Virus record (IMG/VR): IMGVR_UViG_2778261705_000029 | DNA length: 15,064 bases | Direction: 5' to 3' (one strand) | Source of the DNA: a virus | Lineage: Duplodnaviria; Heunggongvirae; Uroviricota; Caudoviricetes | Part shown: positions 1 through 13,696 of the stretch, piece by piece | Numbering within the stretch: the stretch's first letter is position 1 | How the letters are laid out: each line of letters begins with the position of its first letter | Program-made: the position numbers and the translations under genes | Notes under the pieces: model-generated | Seen by the model: the letters and a program-made list of their open reading frames with translations, nothing else | What the model was told of the DNA's origin: nothing | Databases searched by the model: none

Positions 1-600
<600 letters not shown>

Positions 601-649
601 AGGCATTTCGTCATCTCTCACCTCGCGATATTTGCGGGTGCTGTGTTGG

Positions 650-675: not shown

Positions 676-742
676 ACCAGAATTATTTCCCCACCAGTTC
701 ACTTACCTCTTTCACCGTCTGATTAAACCGCTCTGACTCAAG

Positions 743-1057
743 TTAAACACCTAACGCCCGACGCCCCAGCGCCATTGCTGCTTTTATTGTGGAACCGAAT
801 CCCATAAAGAAATCAGCAACCAGATCACCAGGTCGACTACTGGCATTGATTATTTGCCTGAGCATATCCGCCGGTTTCTCGCACGGATGTTTACCCGGGT
901 AGAACTGAACGGGCTTATGCGTCCTGACATCGGTATAAGGCACGGAGACTGATACGGAGAAATAGCGCCGGTGAGATTTAAACTCATCCAGCAATTCAGA
1001 AGATTTGCAATTCAGTGAATCATGAGATACCACCAACTGGTGGTAGGATTGTCTCAA
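743..1057 (-). pseudogene. C-terminal fragment of a DNA (N6-adenine/N4-cytosine) methyltransferase, 5'-truncated
   Basis: The C-terminal ~60 aa (HPCEKPADMLRQIINASSRPGDLVADFFMGFGSTIKAAMALGRRALGV) resemble the C-terminal SAM-binding region of YhdJ-like DNA methylases (HPTQKP ... DPFxGSGTT pattern). The ORF begins with a TTG and has no catalytic (D/N)PPY region; upstream is AT-rich unrelated sequence. Confidence 0.45.
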
Positions 1058-1226
1058 CTAGTGAGCTTTATACATTTAAGTGCGATGCACAGATAATAAC
1101 CACGCCAATGGAATATCACACACAAAATTGATAGAACACTAACAATAAGCCACAAAATAATTCACAATTTATTTTTACAGTGGATAAGTAGCAAAGTAGT
1201 GAATGTGAATAACGGCTAACTAAGAT

Positions 1227-1256
1227 GAAACAAAAAGCCCCACAATATGTGGGGCT
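1227..1256 (-). terminator. Rho-independent terminator after the 61-aa gene
   Basis: 9-bp stem agccccaca/tgtggggct (1236-1244 / 1248-1256) with 3-nt loop; on the minus strand followed by tttttgtttc. Confidence 0.6.
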
Positions 1257-1314
1257 CCTTCGCGATTTATAGTAAAATAATCGATTCTCTAGCTGAAAAA
1301 ATCTTTAAAAATTA

Positions 1315-1500
1315 TCAGCAATACGCAAGTTTTTTACCGTCATCCGGTACTAGTTTGATCACTACACCAGGATTCTTACGCTCTAACATCTGAGTTTGAC
1401 TCCATGTAATACCAAAGGTTTCCATTGGAGATGCATTGCCAGCAAAGAGTTCGGCGACGACTTTAGCTGCCTCAATCTCTATCTGCTCATGATGTTTCAT
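1315..1500 (-). CDS. Hypothetical small protein (61 aa), part of AT-rich cargo
   Basis: ATG at 1498-1500 preceded by AAGGGGA Shine-Dalgarno about 7 nt upstream; the longer ORF start at 1548 has no RBS. Terminator immediately downstream. No family recognised. Confidence 0.45.
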   Translation of the reverse strand: MKHHEQIEIEAAKVVAELFAGNASPMETFGITWSQTQMLERKNPGVVIKLVPDDGKKLAYC

Positions 1501-1691
1501 AAAAATCCCCTTGTTCAGCACTAAGCTGTAGTTGCTTCTTTGAAGCATAAAGGCAACAAAGTTTGTTACCTGAAGATGTATAAAGTAAAGCGTAGTACAT
1601 TTTGTGTGTGCTTTGTGTGGATCCAGATTGCATCAACTAAAAGAGGTTTTCAATACTTTTGTAATGATTCTGGAGAAATTAAGAATCTAAC

Positions 1692-2234
1692 TCACACTGA
1701 TTGGTTAGGTAAAACGCTCCTAAGCACCATTGCGCAACCACCTCGTTCGTAATCAGCAATGTACTCAAAACCACTTTCAGTATAGTATCTTATTGCCCCA
1801 TCAACTGGACTAACTAAAGCTATCGAATCAATAGATTCACCCTGAAGGTTCAGAAATCGTGCATATGCAGAGAAGCAATCCAAAACGATACCAAGCATCT
1901 GATGGTCTAGGTCTTCATGTGCATCATTACGTTTTTCCATCCAGCAAATATGCACCGCATTTTTCGGCTTACAGTAACACCCAAATGCAAATCCAATAGG
2001 CTCCCCACGATAATAAACAACTAGTTTTATCGGGTTTTCTTCCATCATATCCATAAACACTCGCGACTTTAGTCCGGGATCCCACCGCAGTTTATTGTTA
2101 GCCTTGAGGAACTCCATATCTTTTAGTACCAGCTCGTCGGCATATACGAGCCCTAACGACTTATGAGGGAAGCGCCCTTTTAAATACTCTGCAACATTTT
2201 TAAATACTGCTGTTTGGAAGGCTTGAAACATCAT
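1692..2234 (-). CDS. GNAT-fold-like acyl/acetyltransferase candidate (180 aa), AT-rich cargo gene at the late-gene position
   Basis: 180-aa ORF in a clearly AT-rich stretch. The C-terminal segment AIRYYTESGFEYIADYERGGCAMVL resembles GNAT motif B and YYRGEPIGFAFG is a possible acyl-CoA-binding loop. Start codon uncertain (weak RBS at 2234). Family call is low confidence. Confidence 0.4.
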   Translation of the reverse strand: MMFQAFQTAVFKNVAEYLKGRFPHKSLGLVYADELVLKDMEFLKANNKLRWDPGLKSRVFMDMMEENPIKLVVYYRGEPIGFAFGCYCKPKNAVHICWMEKRNDAHEDLDHQMLGIVLDCFSAYARFLNLQGESIDSIALVSPVDGAIRYYTESGFEYIADYERGGCAMVLRSVLPNQSV

Positions 2235-2312
2235 GTCGATCCAGACGAGACGAAAGTTTAAATTCTACCTACTCGCCGAATACCATTTCAATGCCACACA
2301 TCTAAAATTCCG

Positions 2313-2340
2313 AAAAAAAACCCGCACATCAGCGGGTTTT
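2313..2340 (-). terminator. tR'-like rho-independent terminator downstream of the late promoter
   Basis: Stem cccgc/gcggg (2321-2325 / 2332-2336) extended by A:T pairs; on the minus strand followed by 8 consecutive U (complement of a-run 2313-2320). Only 4 T follow it on the + strand. Confidence 0.7.
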
Positions 2341-2385
2341 CTACTTTTTATTAAAGCCGGACACACAATGCCTATCATTGAGAAA

Positions 2386-2414
2386 ATATTATCCATTTTT
2401 TTTGAAAAATGCAA
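2386..2414 (-). promoter_or_regulatory. pR'-like sigma70 late promoter downstream of the Q-like gene
   Basis: On the minus strand: -35 TTGCAT (complement of 2409-2414), 17-nt spacer, -10 TAATAT (complement of 2386-2391). Predicted start near 2379 gives a ~65-nt transcript ending at the 2313-2340 terminator, the classic Q-antiterminated pR'/tR' arrangement. Confidence 0.5.
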
Positions 2415-2445
2415 GCATCATGTCGCCATTTTCGTCGAAAATCAT

Positions 2446-3198
2446 TCATCTCGTCACTTTCCTCAATTGTGTCTCAGCATACGCTTCTTCCTGCCAGCAC
2501 TTTGTAACCAGTTTATCAATGACATCTGCATATCCTTTGTACCACTGATAATCCGTCAGGTCTGGTACCAGCTTCTGGACATGAAGCCGCGCCAGTGTGG
2601 TTGGTAAACGGCTAAACCGGTTTCCATTGCAACGCCCACAAACCTTATAAACAGGCGTGCCATGAAGCCTGGTTCTTTTTTCATCCAGGACAATACCTTT
2701 ACCCTTACACCCTCTGCACGCTGTGCTGACTTCTCCCTTACCATGACAATGCTGACACAGTTCCTTCACCCACTCTTCCTTGATAACAGATTCCCCGCTT
2801 CTGGAGTGTTTCACCACCTCGCGCAATACATCATGAAATCCAGTACCAGCACAATGCTCACAGCGAGCCTTACTTGCCGCAGACCTGGAATAATCAGCAA
2901 AGGCAAAATTCACAAGGTAAGGAATGATCTGTAGCCGGGTTTCTTCACTCAATTTGTTCAATGTCGGGTTATCCAGTGCCATCGCGTAATTGAGCAGACC
3001 TTCAATCGCAAACTGAGGATCCTGAACACCAACTTTTGCCAGGAATAAGGCAAACCCAAGCGGTGCTTTCGACTGCACCATCCCCTGCGCAGCCATTACA
3101 TCCGTAATTGTTAAACCACCAGAGCCTGTCGCCGGTGCGTCATCGCTCAATTTTGGAGATTTTGGGGAGTAATATTTCGGTAAGGCTTCAAAGTTCAT
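2446..3198 (-). CDS. Q-like late antiterminator candidate (250 aa) with DnaJ-type CxxCxGxG zinc-finger repeats
   Basis: ATG at 3196-3198 with GGAG RBS. Last gene of the early-right operon, immediately upstream of the pR'/tR'-like unit. Contains CEHCAGTG, CQHCHGKG, CRGCKGKG and CGRCNGNR. Length and position match my recollection of Qin-prophage QuuQ. Confidence 0.5.
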   Translation of the reverse strand: MNFEALPKYYSPKSPKLSDDAPATGSGGLTITDVMAAQGMVQSKAPLGFALFLAKVGVQDPQFAIEGLLNYAMALDNPTLNKLSEETRLQIIPYLVNFAFADYSRSAASKARCEHCAGTGFHDVLREVVKHSRSGESVIKEEWVKELCQHCHGKGEVSTACRGCKGKGIVLDEKRTRLHGTPVYKVCGRCNGNRFSRLPTTLARLHVQKLVPDLTDYQWYKGYADVIDKLVTKCWQEEAYAETQLRKVTR

Positions 3199-3211
3199 GC
3201 TCGTTCTCCAC

Positions 3212-4207
3212 TTACGCCAGTACGCCTATTGCCAGCGCACGATCGATAAAACGAAATATCAGCTCCAGCTGGGAGCCATACTTCTCTTCAAATGCCACGG
3301 TATCCGCATGCAGCTCGTCGTGATGCTTTCTGCACAAAGGCAACACAAAGAGGTCATGCGCTTTTGTACCCATTCCTCCCTGACCGTGACCTATCAGGTG
3401 GTGGGGATCATCAGCAGGCTTTCCACAACATGCACACGGCTGTGTCTTAACCCAGCGCGTGTACTTTTCATTAACCCAGCGGCGACGTTTTGGGCGTAAC
3501 ATAAAAGACTCCGGCGACTCAGGATCCACTTTCAGCGCCAGCACCTTTTTCGCTTTATCCTGGATGATGCTGGTGGCAGGAACCGAAGGCACAAGGTCAC
3601 TTTCCCGGGTAACAGACGGCACAACAGGCTTCGGTAATCTAAGTGCCTTACGGGCTGCACTTTCCGGTAAGGCATCCGCCAGGTCATTACGAATCAGCCA
3701 CCAGCACAGTTCCGGCATTGTCACAACGTGACTGTCATCAAAACCGAGATCCCGACGCACAACAGACAACACCCAGCGGGCACAGTTATCCGTTGCCATT
3801 GATTCCAGCCGTTCCGTGAACTGATCGCGCAGCTGGTTATCGCAGTGCCAGCACAGACGGATTGCGCCCGGAGCGTGTCGCATTGTGGTCATGTTCTCGC
3901 TGTGCCAGTCGGAATGAGGCCACTGGCAGCCTTTTTCACGAAGTAACCAGCTTTCAAGACATTCCACGCCACCAGCACGACGGATCACTGCCTCATTGCG
4001 GAACACGGCCCGAACGGCAGGATCATCCGCCAGCGGTTGTGATGCCGCCGGAACGGCACCACTGGCGAAAGATGAATAACGTTCCGGCTCAGGCTCCAGC
4101 AGGACACGCCCCTGCATAAACAGGGGCATCAGCTCTGAACCTGGCCTGAACAATACGATCCCCATACGCGGGGCAATTTCAGGAGTCAGTAGTGCTCTCA
4201 CGGTCAC
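3212..4207 (-). CDS. DUF968/YdfU-like prophage protein with C-terminal HNH-like Cys/His motif
   Basis: 331-aa ORF with GTG start at 4205-4207 directly after the upstream stop. C-terminus CACCGKPADDPHHLIGHGQGGMGTKAHDLFVLPLCRKHHDELH is an HNH-like metal-binding motif. Position upstream of Q matches my recollection of ydfU in Qin. Confidence 0.5.
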   Translation of the reverse strand: MTVRALLTPEIAPRMGIVLFRPGSELMPLFMQGRVLLEPEPERYSSFASGAVPAASQPLADDPAVRAVFRNEAVIRRAGGVECLESWLLREKGCQWPHSDWHSENMTTMRHAPGAIRLCWHCDNQLRDQFTERLESMATDNCARWVLSVVRRDLGFDDSHVVTMPELCWWLIRNDLADALPESAARKALRLPKPVVPSVTRESDLVPSVPATSIIQDKAKKVLALKVDPESPESFMLRPKRRRWVNEKYTRWVKTQPCACCGKPADDPHHLIGHGQGGMGTKAHDLFVLPLCRKHHDELHADTVAFEEKYGSQLELIFRFIDRALAIGVLA

Positions 4208-12216: not shown

Positions 12217-12566
12217 TGGAGCCATACAGCCTCACACTCGATGAGGCCTGTCATTTTCTCAAGATATCCAGACCGACTGCCATTAACTGGATACGCACAG
12301 GGCGTCTTCAGGCAACACGCAAAGATCCCACTAAGAATAAATCTCCTTACCTCACAACACGACAAGCCTGCATTGCGGCTCTTCAGTCTCCGCTGCATAC
12401 TGTCCAGGTGAGCGCGGGTGATGGCATAACAGAGGAAAGAAAATGTCACTCTTCCGCAGAGGTGAAATATGGTACGCCAGTTTCACATTGCCGAACGGTA
12501 AAAGATTTAAACAGTCTCTTGGAACAAAGGACAAAAGGCAGGCGACAGAACTCCATGACAAGCTAA
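12216..12566 (+). CDS. xis: Excisionase (Xis-like winged-helix); 3' end uncertain because the frame overlaps int
   Basis: ATG 12216-12218 with AAGAGGTG RBS and TAATG coupling. N-terminus [38 protein letters not shown] has the Xis/AlpA-like pattern. The frame runs to 12566, 124 bp into int. Confidence 0.55.
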
Positions 12567-13606
12567 AGGCTGAAGCATGGCGGGTCAGCAAACTTGGTGA
12601 AATACCTGATATAACGTTCGAGGAAGCGTGTGTCAGGTGGCTTGAAGAGAAAGCACATAAAAAATCGCTGGACGATGACAAAAGCCGGATCGGATTCTGG
12701 CTTCAACATTTCGCAGGAATGCAACTAAGAGACATTACTGAATCAAAAATTTATTCAGCAATGCAGAAAATGACGAACCGGCGTCATGAGGAAAACTGGA
12801 AACTCAGGGCAGAAGCATGCAGAAAAAAAGGGAAACCTGTTCCAGAATACACGCCAAAACCAGCGTCCGTTGCAACGAAGGCTACGCATCTTTCATTTAT
12901 AAAGGCCCTACTAAGAGCCGCAGAGCGTGAATGGAAAATGCTGGATAAGGCACCAATTATTAAAGTGCCTCAACCAAAGAATAAACGGATCCGCTGGCTG
13001 GAGCCCCATGAAGCACAAAGGCTGATTGATGAATGTCCGGAGCCATTAAAGTCTGTTGTTGAATTTGCACTGGCAACAGGCTTAAGACGCTCGAACATCA
13101 TCAACCTTGAATGGCAACAAATAGATATGCAGCGCCGGGTGGCATGGATAAACCCGGAAGAGAGTAAATCAAACCGCGCAATTGGCGTTGCGCTGAATGA
13201 TACTGCATGTCGCGTATTGAAAAAACAAATCGGGAATCATCACCGTTGGGTATTTGTGTACAAGGAAAGCTGTACCAAACCAGACGGAACGAAAGCGCCA
13301 ACAGTAAGGAAGATGCGGTATGACGCAAACACAGCCTGGAAAGCGGCGCTGAGACGGGCTGGTATTGATGATTTCAGATTTCACGACTTGAGACACACCT
13401 GGGCAAGTTGGCTGGTTCAAGCCGGAGTCCCGTTGTCAGTGTTACAGGAAATGGGAGGCTGGGAGTCTATCGAAATGGTTCGTCGATATGCTCACCTTGC
13501 ACCTAATCACCTTACCGAACACGCACGGCAAATAGACTCGATCCTGAACCCATCGGTCCCAAATTTGTCCCAGTCAAAAAATAAGGAAGGTACTAATGAT
13601 GTGTAA
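12443..13606 (+). CDS. int: Tyrosine site-specific integrase (lambda-family)
   Basis: 387 aa, AGAGGA RBS 6 nt upstream. C-terminal catalytic motifs HDLRHTWAS and VRRYAHL (Tyr nucleophile). Directly adjacent to the tRNA 3' end. Confidence 0.9.
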
Positions 13607-13620
13607 CTTATTGATTTTAA

Positions 13621-13696
13621 TGGTGCCGATAATAGGAGTCGAACCTACGACCTTCGCATTACGAATGCGCTGCTCTACCAACTGAGCTATATCGGC
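13621..13696 (-). tRNA. thrW: tRNA-Thr (anticodon CGU)
   Basis: 76-nt reverse complement gccgatatagctcagttggtagagcagcgcattcgtaatgcgaaggtcgtaggttcgactcctattatcggcacca: 7-bp acceptor stem, anticodon loop TTCGTAA, T-loop GGTTCGA, encoded CCA end. Immediately downstream of proA. Confidence 0.85.

Follow-up and report, generated by a model that had tools for sequence, protein, structure and literature searches.

What occupies the interval between the antiterminator gene Q and the lysis genes of this prophage, and is it under the control of Q? The question arises in the window, which is the whole 15,064-nucleotide stretch of DNA analyzed here (IMG/VR record IMGVR_UViG_2778261705_000029). Directly downstream of Q, on the same strand, lie two open reading frames (ORFs) for proteins of 180 aa (1692–2234) and 61 aa (1315–1500). 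The first-pass annotation gave these sizes correctly and took the two genes for Q-dependent cargo in the position of Shiga toxin (Stx) genes, with a GNAT-like protein as the larger product. The observation held up for the most part, and its interpretation in part. The best overall explanation is an autonomous two-gene moron that encodes a GNAT-fold enzyme together with its partner, and its probability was estimated at roughly 0.5. The cargo is a rare, uncharacterized two-gene module, and its site is biologically meaningful. It belongs to no recognized toxin-antitoxin (TA) or defence family, and by content it is not an analogue of stx.

An AT-rich segment replaces part of the late region

The limits of the cargo were determined by BLAST comparison with phage SfV and an Stx2c phage. 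Both phages were 95% identical to window positions 2314–3400. SfV was 95% identical again at 584–1052, and the Stx2c phage showed only 76% identity over 717–993. Positions 1053–2313 gave no match to either phage. This replacement segment of 1261 bp begins at the last T of the tR'-like terminator described below. In SfV, the equivalent interval contains orf47 and the 5' two-thirds of the methylase gene orf48. The full N6/N4 DNA methylase gene is present in both SfV and the Stx2c phage, and the window retains just its 3' third (743–1057, minus strand), which covers PF01555 positions 156–209 of 221 only and is labelled 'missing N-terminus' in RefSeq. The late-region methylase kept by SfV and the Stx2c phage is thus missing from this prophage, whose copy of the gene lost its 5' part to the cargo insertion.

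The composition of the segment was compared with that of the remaining prophage. Its GC content was 39.1% versus 49.5% for the rest, where the lowest window of equal size reached 41.8%. The GC content at third codon positions (GC3) was 0.38 in the cargo and 0.46–0.67 in most other prophage genes checked; the exceptions near the cargo value were the cI-like repressor gene (0.42) and the integrase gene (0.45). The AT-richness noticed at first reading was thus confirmed by both GC and codon usage. Of 5426 complete E. coli genomes, 98 carry the whole segment, including 260 bp past the small gene, and in all of them the context is the one seen here. Homology to the diverged locus L028 extends from 2339 to 1311, that is, from the tR' hairpin to the stop of the small gene, at 81% identity, and thereby defines the transferable core.

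The segment is therefore extra DNA relative to SfV and the Stx2c phage, and homologous modules occupy other positions in other prophages. A promoter of its own (P1, 10/12 consensus matches) and a closing terminator with a 13-bp stem are predicted from the sequence. On three grounds, namely its presence as an insertion when compared with close relatives, its deviating composition, and its own predicted promoter and terminator, we consider it very probable that the cargo is an autonomous moron, taking anatomy and moron status together. In lambdoid and Stx phages, morons are known to cluster in the late region (PMC3430580). Those of the Q-to-S interval, such as the stx operons, and lambda bor beyond the lysis cassette are likewise lower-GC extra DNA with their own promoter and terminator. 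The proteins encoded by the present cargo are unrelated to any described moron product.

The cargo had been placed where Stx phages carry their toxin genes. This holds for the Q-to-S interval but not for the exact slot. The Stx2c phage carries, in this order, Q, tR', a 141-aa ORF, a 75-aa ORF, the intact methylase gene, stx2cA, and stx2cB. The stx genes thus lie past the methylase gene, whereas the cargo fills the first slot past tR' and the methylase gene is destroyed. Like stx, the cargo lies downstream of pR'/tR', so that read-through by Q is predicted to be able to boost it. Because the Stx2c phage carries other cargo behind a 95% identical Q/pR'/tR' region, the slot right after tR' is, judging from the aligned sequences, a variable cargo site separate from the stx position. 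In this Stx2c phage (PV98-693; L003 3999–4851), the 141-aa ORF of the slot begins with a hydrophobic stretch, contains a Cys, and looks lipoprotein-like by eye.

The late promoter unit behind Q

The Q gene (2446–3198, minus strand) encodes a 250-aa antiterminator of the QuuQ/SfV-Q type with a DnaJ-like zinc finger (PF03589, E=8e-53; phrog_127), and RefSeq names it 'antitermination protein'. The nucleotide identity of the Q region was 95% to SfV and to the Stx2c phage. Downstream of the gene lies a pR'-like late promoter, TTGCAT-17 nt-TAATAT (2386–2414, minus strand; -35 at 2414–2409 and -10 at 2391–2386). The first-pass annotation had called it a strong promoter. Its presence was confirmed but its strength was not, as it shows only 7/12 consensus matches and was missed by a consensus promoter scan. 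The -35 core TTGCA is invariant in five phages or prophages of the same Q family. A -10-like element for sigma70 pausing, AATGAT-AGG, is located 7 nt past the -10 at approximately +1 to +9 (2371–2379, minus strand). SfV, the Stx2c phage, and two more prophages with the same Q family keep the promoter and have AACGATGGG, the pause element of lambda pR', at the pause position. The sigma70-dependent pause element of lambda pR' consists of AACGAT at +1 to +6, followed by a GGG discriminator-like sequence (PMC4005639), and by analogy AATGAT-AGG probably acts as a pause element here. Conservation and the pause element, rather than consensus strength, argue for the assignment to pR'.

The promoter is followed by a tR'-like intrinsic terminator, AAAACCCGC-TGATGT-GCGGGTTTT with a T-run (T8), at 2313–2340 on the minus strand. 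Its hairpin would terminate an RNA of about 67 nt. An 81-nt stretch that includes this predicted transcript folded better than 200 of 200 shuffles (z = -3.4), and the annotation of SfV marks the homologous hairpin as a terminator. The short-transcript terminator suspected behind a Q-like gene was therefore supported. The sequence holds the elements of a lambda-type unit, namely a Q gene, a promoter with an early pause element, and an intrinsic terminator yielding a short RNA, and we accept on these predicted elements that a pR'/tR'-type unit is present.

The pR'-tR' RNA (2313–2379, minus strand) gave sub-threshold Rfam matches to RF02891 (26.6 bits; gathering threshold 40) and isrK (18.9 bits; gathering threshold 50). 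At gathering thresholds, tRNA-Thr was the sole Rfam match in the window. Short late-promoter transcripts of other prophages have been described as small regulatory RNAs, and by comparison with these the transcript from pR' to tR' may be one itself.

Promoters, spacer, and terminators of the cargo

The consensus-strong promoter of the region lies after the tR' terminator and belongs to the cargo. This candidate, P1 (TTGAAA-18-TAGAAT; 2262–2291, minus strand), is located 28 nt upstream of the 180-aa ORF. In most homologous loci, a sigma70-like promoter site was read by hand 30–50 nt upstream of the large gene; the site is poor or absent in a few loci, for example L032, L039, and L041. A conserved box, TTGAAAAC...GATGCAATCT (1625–1653, minus strand), lies in the spacer between the two genes and is kept in eight diverged loci. 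It is conserved in Escherichia- and Erwinia-type loci while the remaining spacer diverges, and it is a candidate second promoter, P2, for the small gene. The Shine-Dalgarno sequence AAGGGG before the small gene is invariant and reads AAGGGGA at 1512–1506 in the window.

Most relatives have a clear intrinsic terminator after the spacer box. The corresponding element is degenerate in the window, where a weak hairpin with a 9-bp stem, three GC pairs, and a poor T-run was found (1551–1571, minus strand). The cargo unit is closed by a strong intrinsic terminator at 1228–1260 (minus strand), whose 13-bp stem has six GC pairs and is followed by a T-run. Thus, the claim that each gene has its own terminator was confirmed for the 61-aa gene but at best partly for the 180-aa gene. 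In the spacers compared (window 1500–1692 and loci L006, L008, L014, L028, L030, L032, and L033), the box is usually followed by a terminator and a second hairpin and then by AAGGGG, an arrangement resembling an attenuator or a small RNA embedded in the spacer. No consensus RNA structure was recovered for the intergenic spacer, the sequences being too divergent.

The 180-aa protein adopts a predicted GNAT fold

Structure prediction with AlphaFold2 (AF2) gave a confident fold for the 180-aa protein (1692–2234, minus strand; phrog_11949, a family of unknown function). The model contains the GNAT core in the order beta1-alpha1-alpha2-beta2-beta3-beta4-alpha3-beta5-alpha4-beta6, and the initial guess of a GNAT-like protein was therefore borne out at the fold level. 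The closest solved folds are N-terminal acetyltransferases of the RimI/Naa50/NatD type. The cargo protein is only 9–10% identical to them and differs by an extra N-terminal helix (residues 2–21) and a non-canonical beta4-alpha3 loop. It gave no Pfam or NCBIfam match at E<=1 and no PDB sequence match, and PF00583 was touched by only 2 of 39 family members with a best E-value of 0.11.

Nearly all family members keep E100 at the end of beta4, Y74 and G85 are invariant, and the alpha4 motif RYYxxSGF resembles GNAT motif B. E100 and RYYxxSGF are candidate catalytic positions on the basis of this conservation. Acyl-transfer chemistry is plausible for the protein, with the donor uncertain. The protein is acidic, with an isoelectric point (pI) of 5.8 and a family median of 5.7. 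The dN/dS value of its gene was 0.056 against L028 at a dS of about 1.1, which indicates strong purifying selection. The family is small, with 27 clusters at 90% identity among 5.8 billion proteins and 37 representatives at E<=1e-3 among 1.84 billion. It was found in 1 of 50,697 phage records and in one plasmid.

A small partner is strictly paired with the GNAT-fold protein

The 61-aa protein (1315–1500, minus strand; phrog_11292, function unknown) has a mass of 6.8 kDa and a pI of 6.0 and is predicted to form three short helices and a disordered tail ending in Cys. It matched no known fold, and no significant Pfam, NCBIfam, or PDB match was obtained. The tail PDDGK..A.C is conserved, and its terminal Cys is invariant in the clade at >=44% identity; the most distant pairs (L041 and L045) retain neither the tail motif nor this Cys. 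Strong purifying selection was also observed for this gene, with a dN/dS of 0.043 against L028 (dS about 1.1).

A homologue of the 61-aa gene follows the relative of the 180-aa gene on the same strand in 35 of 35 fetched loci. The start-to-stop gap is approximately 150–240 nt in the 13 non-redundant loci measured and 191 nt in the window. Distant members with 19–33% identity also have a partner ORF of 54–59 aa directly downstream (6/6), which aligns with the partner family after a gap of about 90–170 nt. It is therefore likely that the two genes form an obligate enzyme-partner pair. The strict pairing, the gene order, the separate candidate promoter of the small gene, and the flexible tail together suggest an enzyme with a cognate regulator or substrate. 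In the loci examined, the pair was not accompanied by genes for export, a protease, or immunity.

The module occurs in several genomic contexts

Homologues with 20–99% identity and conserved synteny are present across several Enterobacterales families, and the protein family occurs in Photorhabdus, Pragia, Limnobaculum, Erwinia, Proteus, and Cronobacter prophages as well as non-pathogenic E. coli. The co-directional order of Q, pair, and holin was observed behind PF03589 Q genes in the window, L028, and L030, and behind unrelated PF06530 Q genes in L008, L010, L032, and L011. The holin families differ among these loci, and a methylase gene sometimes lies in between. Co-directional placement behind Q thus occurs in at least seven independent contexts and behind two unrelated Q families. 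In other loci, the pair is directly upstream of a holin gene (L044) or among tail or morphogenesis genes (L014 and L033). It lies beside umuDC on the strand opposite a Q-like gene in L039 and in a non-phage neighbourhood in L046. In L038, a P2-like prophage, a distant pair with 33% and 29–33% identity has gpA on one side and the portal gene on the other.

These contexts bear on the claim that the cargo depends on Q. Its co-directional position behind Q was confirmed, but sole dependence on Q was not, given the promoter-like sites of the module itself and the placements in L039 and L038. The module is also found out of reach of Q, and Q dependence is therefore, as far as gene arrangement tells, a property of the landing site and not of the module. 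Read-through of the cargo driven by Q on induction is plausible from the layout of the locus.

Some neighbours of the pair were recorded as further observations. In a Pragia fontium prophage (L005 7444–9037), the pair comes after Rz-like genes. Next in line are a gene with a Pyocin_S domain (433 aa) and an ORF of 100 aa, which may encode a bacteriocin and its immunity protein as further cargo. In Photorhabdus australis (L012 2846–6008), the pair lies between a HicB-like antitoxin gene and a chloramphenicol acetyltransferase (cat) gene. A HicB-like gene is also located just downstream of the pair in L032.

A possible protective role in the lysogen

The origin and mechanism of the module can be described as follows. 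Recombination very probably placed it exactly at the tR' end in a lambdoid/P27-like prophage at thrW, at the cost of orf47 and the 5' portion of the methylase gene. The module consists, in this order, of the predicted promoter P1, the 180-aa GNAT-fold gene, the spacer with the promoter-like box, the 61-aa gene, and the terminator. Both genes would be transcribed in the lysogen from their own sigma70 promoters, P1 and P2. On induction, Q-modified RNA polymerase from pR' would add read-through of the module, as for stx. The large protein would be an acyl-transferase gated or directed by the small protein, probably via the flexible C-terminal tail, and the pair would serve the lysogen as a TA-like or abortive-infection-type protective module and not as a virulence toxin.

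That a partner-gated acyl-transferase protects the lysogen in this TA-like or abortive-infection manner is a tentative proposal. It is favoured because of moron logic and the P2 hotspot case. The gpA-gpQ (tin/old) interval of P2 is a hotspot of anti-phage systems that also holds other genes (PMC9122126; PMC13586616), and the likeness to its cargo consists of the distant homologous pair found there in one locus only (L038). Still more speculative is a new two-component system in which a cofactor-divergent GNAT enzyme would be switched by, or would modify, the Cys tail of its partner. Such a system might act in TA, abortive infection, or superinfection exclusion, with a Q-coupled dosage in lambdoid hosts.

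Several results weigh against an enzymatic module with a protective role. The link to GNAT enzymes does not extend to the sequence level, as the hhalign probability between the family profile and E. coli RimI was 1.3%. The beta4-alpha3 loop reads R102-N-D-A-H-E107 and not Q/R-x-x-G-x-G/A, and it is not kept in the most distant members. The loop has the right length and is invariant in close relatives (WMEKRNDAHEDLDHQ), with Ala and Glu replacing the Gly and the Gly/Ala positions. The use of acetyl-CoA is uncertain because this pyrophosphate loop deviates and is not conserved in the most distant members. The model of the partner was of moderate confidence (pLDDT 70, pTM 0.36). Neither protein matched a PADLOC-DB v2 model at E<=1. 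Placement in a hotspot is circumstantial, since hotspots hold non-defence genes too (PMC9122126). GNAT or acetyltransferase proteins are unmentioned in the text of PMC9122126 and PMC13586616 and in the 2022 supplements (Rousset et al.), and a literature search with the protein accessions, the PHROG ids, and GNAT combined with anti-phage or prophage returned nothing describing the pair. Finally, the repeated co-directional placement behind Q is equally compatible with a late function that serves the phage.

Alternative explanations

The pair may instead serve the phage in lytic growth. The enzyme would then be a Q-driven late function that acylates a host defence or takeover target, a virion component, or a lysis component, and the small protein would be its adaptor or substrate. 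The pair is co-directional right behind Q or beside the lysis cassette in most prophage contexts, and this placement holds behind two unrelated Q families and with several holin families. However, most loci have their own sigma70-like promoters, and a terminator stands in front of the module. The module also lies opposite Q and the late genes in L039, in the lysogen-expressed tin/old position of P2 in L038, and outside a phage in L046. On this evidence, a role in lytic growth appears unlikely.

In another explanation, the 61-aa protein would be the actual product and the GNAT-fold protein its dedicated modifier, with acylation of the Lys/Cys tail, for example, producing a modified effector. 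Loss of the tail motif and the terminal Cys in L041 and L045 argues against this, and so does the lack of accompanying genes for export, a protease, or immunity. In its favour are the conservation of the partner, which is no lower than that of the enzyme, the conserved PDDGK..A.C in its disordered tail, and the strict pairing. We regard this explanation as improbable.

A cargo for lysogenic conversion or virulence, directed at the host cell or an animal and released on induction like Stx, would agree with the shared Q-to-S interval, with a Q/pR'/tR' region 95% identical to that of Stx2c phages, and with the O157:H7 host. Yet both proteins are small and acidic, and no signal peptide was evident by reading the sequences (no predictor was run). 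The family is present in the other Enterobacterales genera named above and in non-pathogenic E. coli, and sequence and structure searches revealed no similarity to known toxins. The Stx-like toxin was rejected on the spread of the family and the lack of toxin similarity, and its probability is low.

Membership in the canonical type II TA systems of GNAT and ribbon-helix-helix (RHH) proteins (TacAT, AtaRT, and KacAT), which acetylate aminoacyl-tRNA, is very improbable. The known systems (TacT-TacA, AtaT-AtaR, KacT-KacA, and ItaT-ItaR) likewise combine a GNAT fold of about 175–190 aa with a small partner on mobile DNA. The matches supporting this assignment lie on a flat plateau common to about 60 unrelated GNATs. 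Unlike in these systems, the gene order is reversed, the long spacer has a promoter-like box of its own, the partner matches neither DUF1778/RHH nor a known fold, and the acidic enzyme has no Acetyltransf match. Canonical membership was therefore rejected on gene order (small gene downstream in 35/35), partner type, and charge. This failure lowers the claim of a TacAT-type system but not the claim that the pair may work like one. In GNAT/RHH systems, the C-terminus of the antitoxin blocks the active site of the toxin, which invites the idea that the conserved disordered tail of the partner could block the enzyme similarly.

Chance or decaying ORFs in junk AT-rich DNA, which the missing family annotation, the base composition, and the partly degraded prophage (an insertion sequence and a truncated methylase gene) might suggest, were rejected as barely credible by the conservation data, with dN/dS values of 0.04–0.06 at a dS of about 1, syntenic homologues at 20–99% identity, and a confident AF2 fold.

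Prophage setting and the interrupted lysis region

Window positions 700–3300 are 100% identical to several E. coli O157:H7 chromosomes. The prophage is inserted at the tRNA-Thr gene thrW (13621–13696), adjoining proA, and the prophage genes around the cargo are all on the minus strand. When the thrW site of strain Sakai was checked, this prophage was absent, and Sp1 at that site was a different element. An intact copy in strain SS TX 754-1 (L001) contains a DUF968 gene, Q, two hypothetical genes, the truncated DNA methyltransferase gene, holin, endolysin, and Rz, followed by terminase, P27-type head genes, and myovirus-type (sheathed) tail genes. The free phage vB_EcoM-689R6 (L002) shows the same arrangement at 99.7% identity. 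In both, the holin, endolysin, and Rz genes begin approximately 0.7 kb past the cargo.

In the window, the right end of the insertion sequence (IS) IS1203/IS629 (IS3 family; 1–585, plus strand), which is 99.8% identical to IS1203 in L001, interrupts the holin gene. Only the first 7 codons of this lambda-family holin gene remain (586–606, minus strand), as it is cut after codon 7. The idea that the cargo stands instead of lysis genes was misleading, since intact relatives keep holin, endolysin, and Rz downstream and it is the IS that cuts the holin gene here. Comparison with these copies indicates that the cargo does not replace the lysis genes. The prophage copy in the window would be lysis-defective. 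The defect appears to be strain-specific because none of 5426 complete E. coli genomes showed the IS-holin junction at 585. As the first letter of the window already belongs to the IS, deleted lysis genes cannot be distinguished from displaced ones. In L001, iss, a bor-like serum-survival lipoprotein gene (12309–12602), lies just past Rz as a further moron flanking the lysis cassette; because of the IS, this region is outside the window.

Significance of the module

The interval between Q and the lysis genes hosts induction-coupled cargo such as Shiga toxin, so other residents of this interval matter for the biology of O157:H7. Prophage cargo and defence hotspots in various Enterobacterales have acquired the module repeatedly, and it is absent from Pfam, NCBIfam, and PADLOC. 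The cargo unit is compact, with a predicted size of 1 kb including its native promoters. Should the pair prove TA-like or anti-phage, the known defences would gain a GNAT-fold effector whose partner is of a new type. If its role is protein modification, the pair would represent a new enzyme-substrate family.

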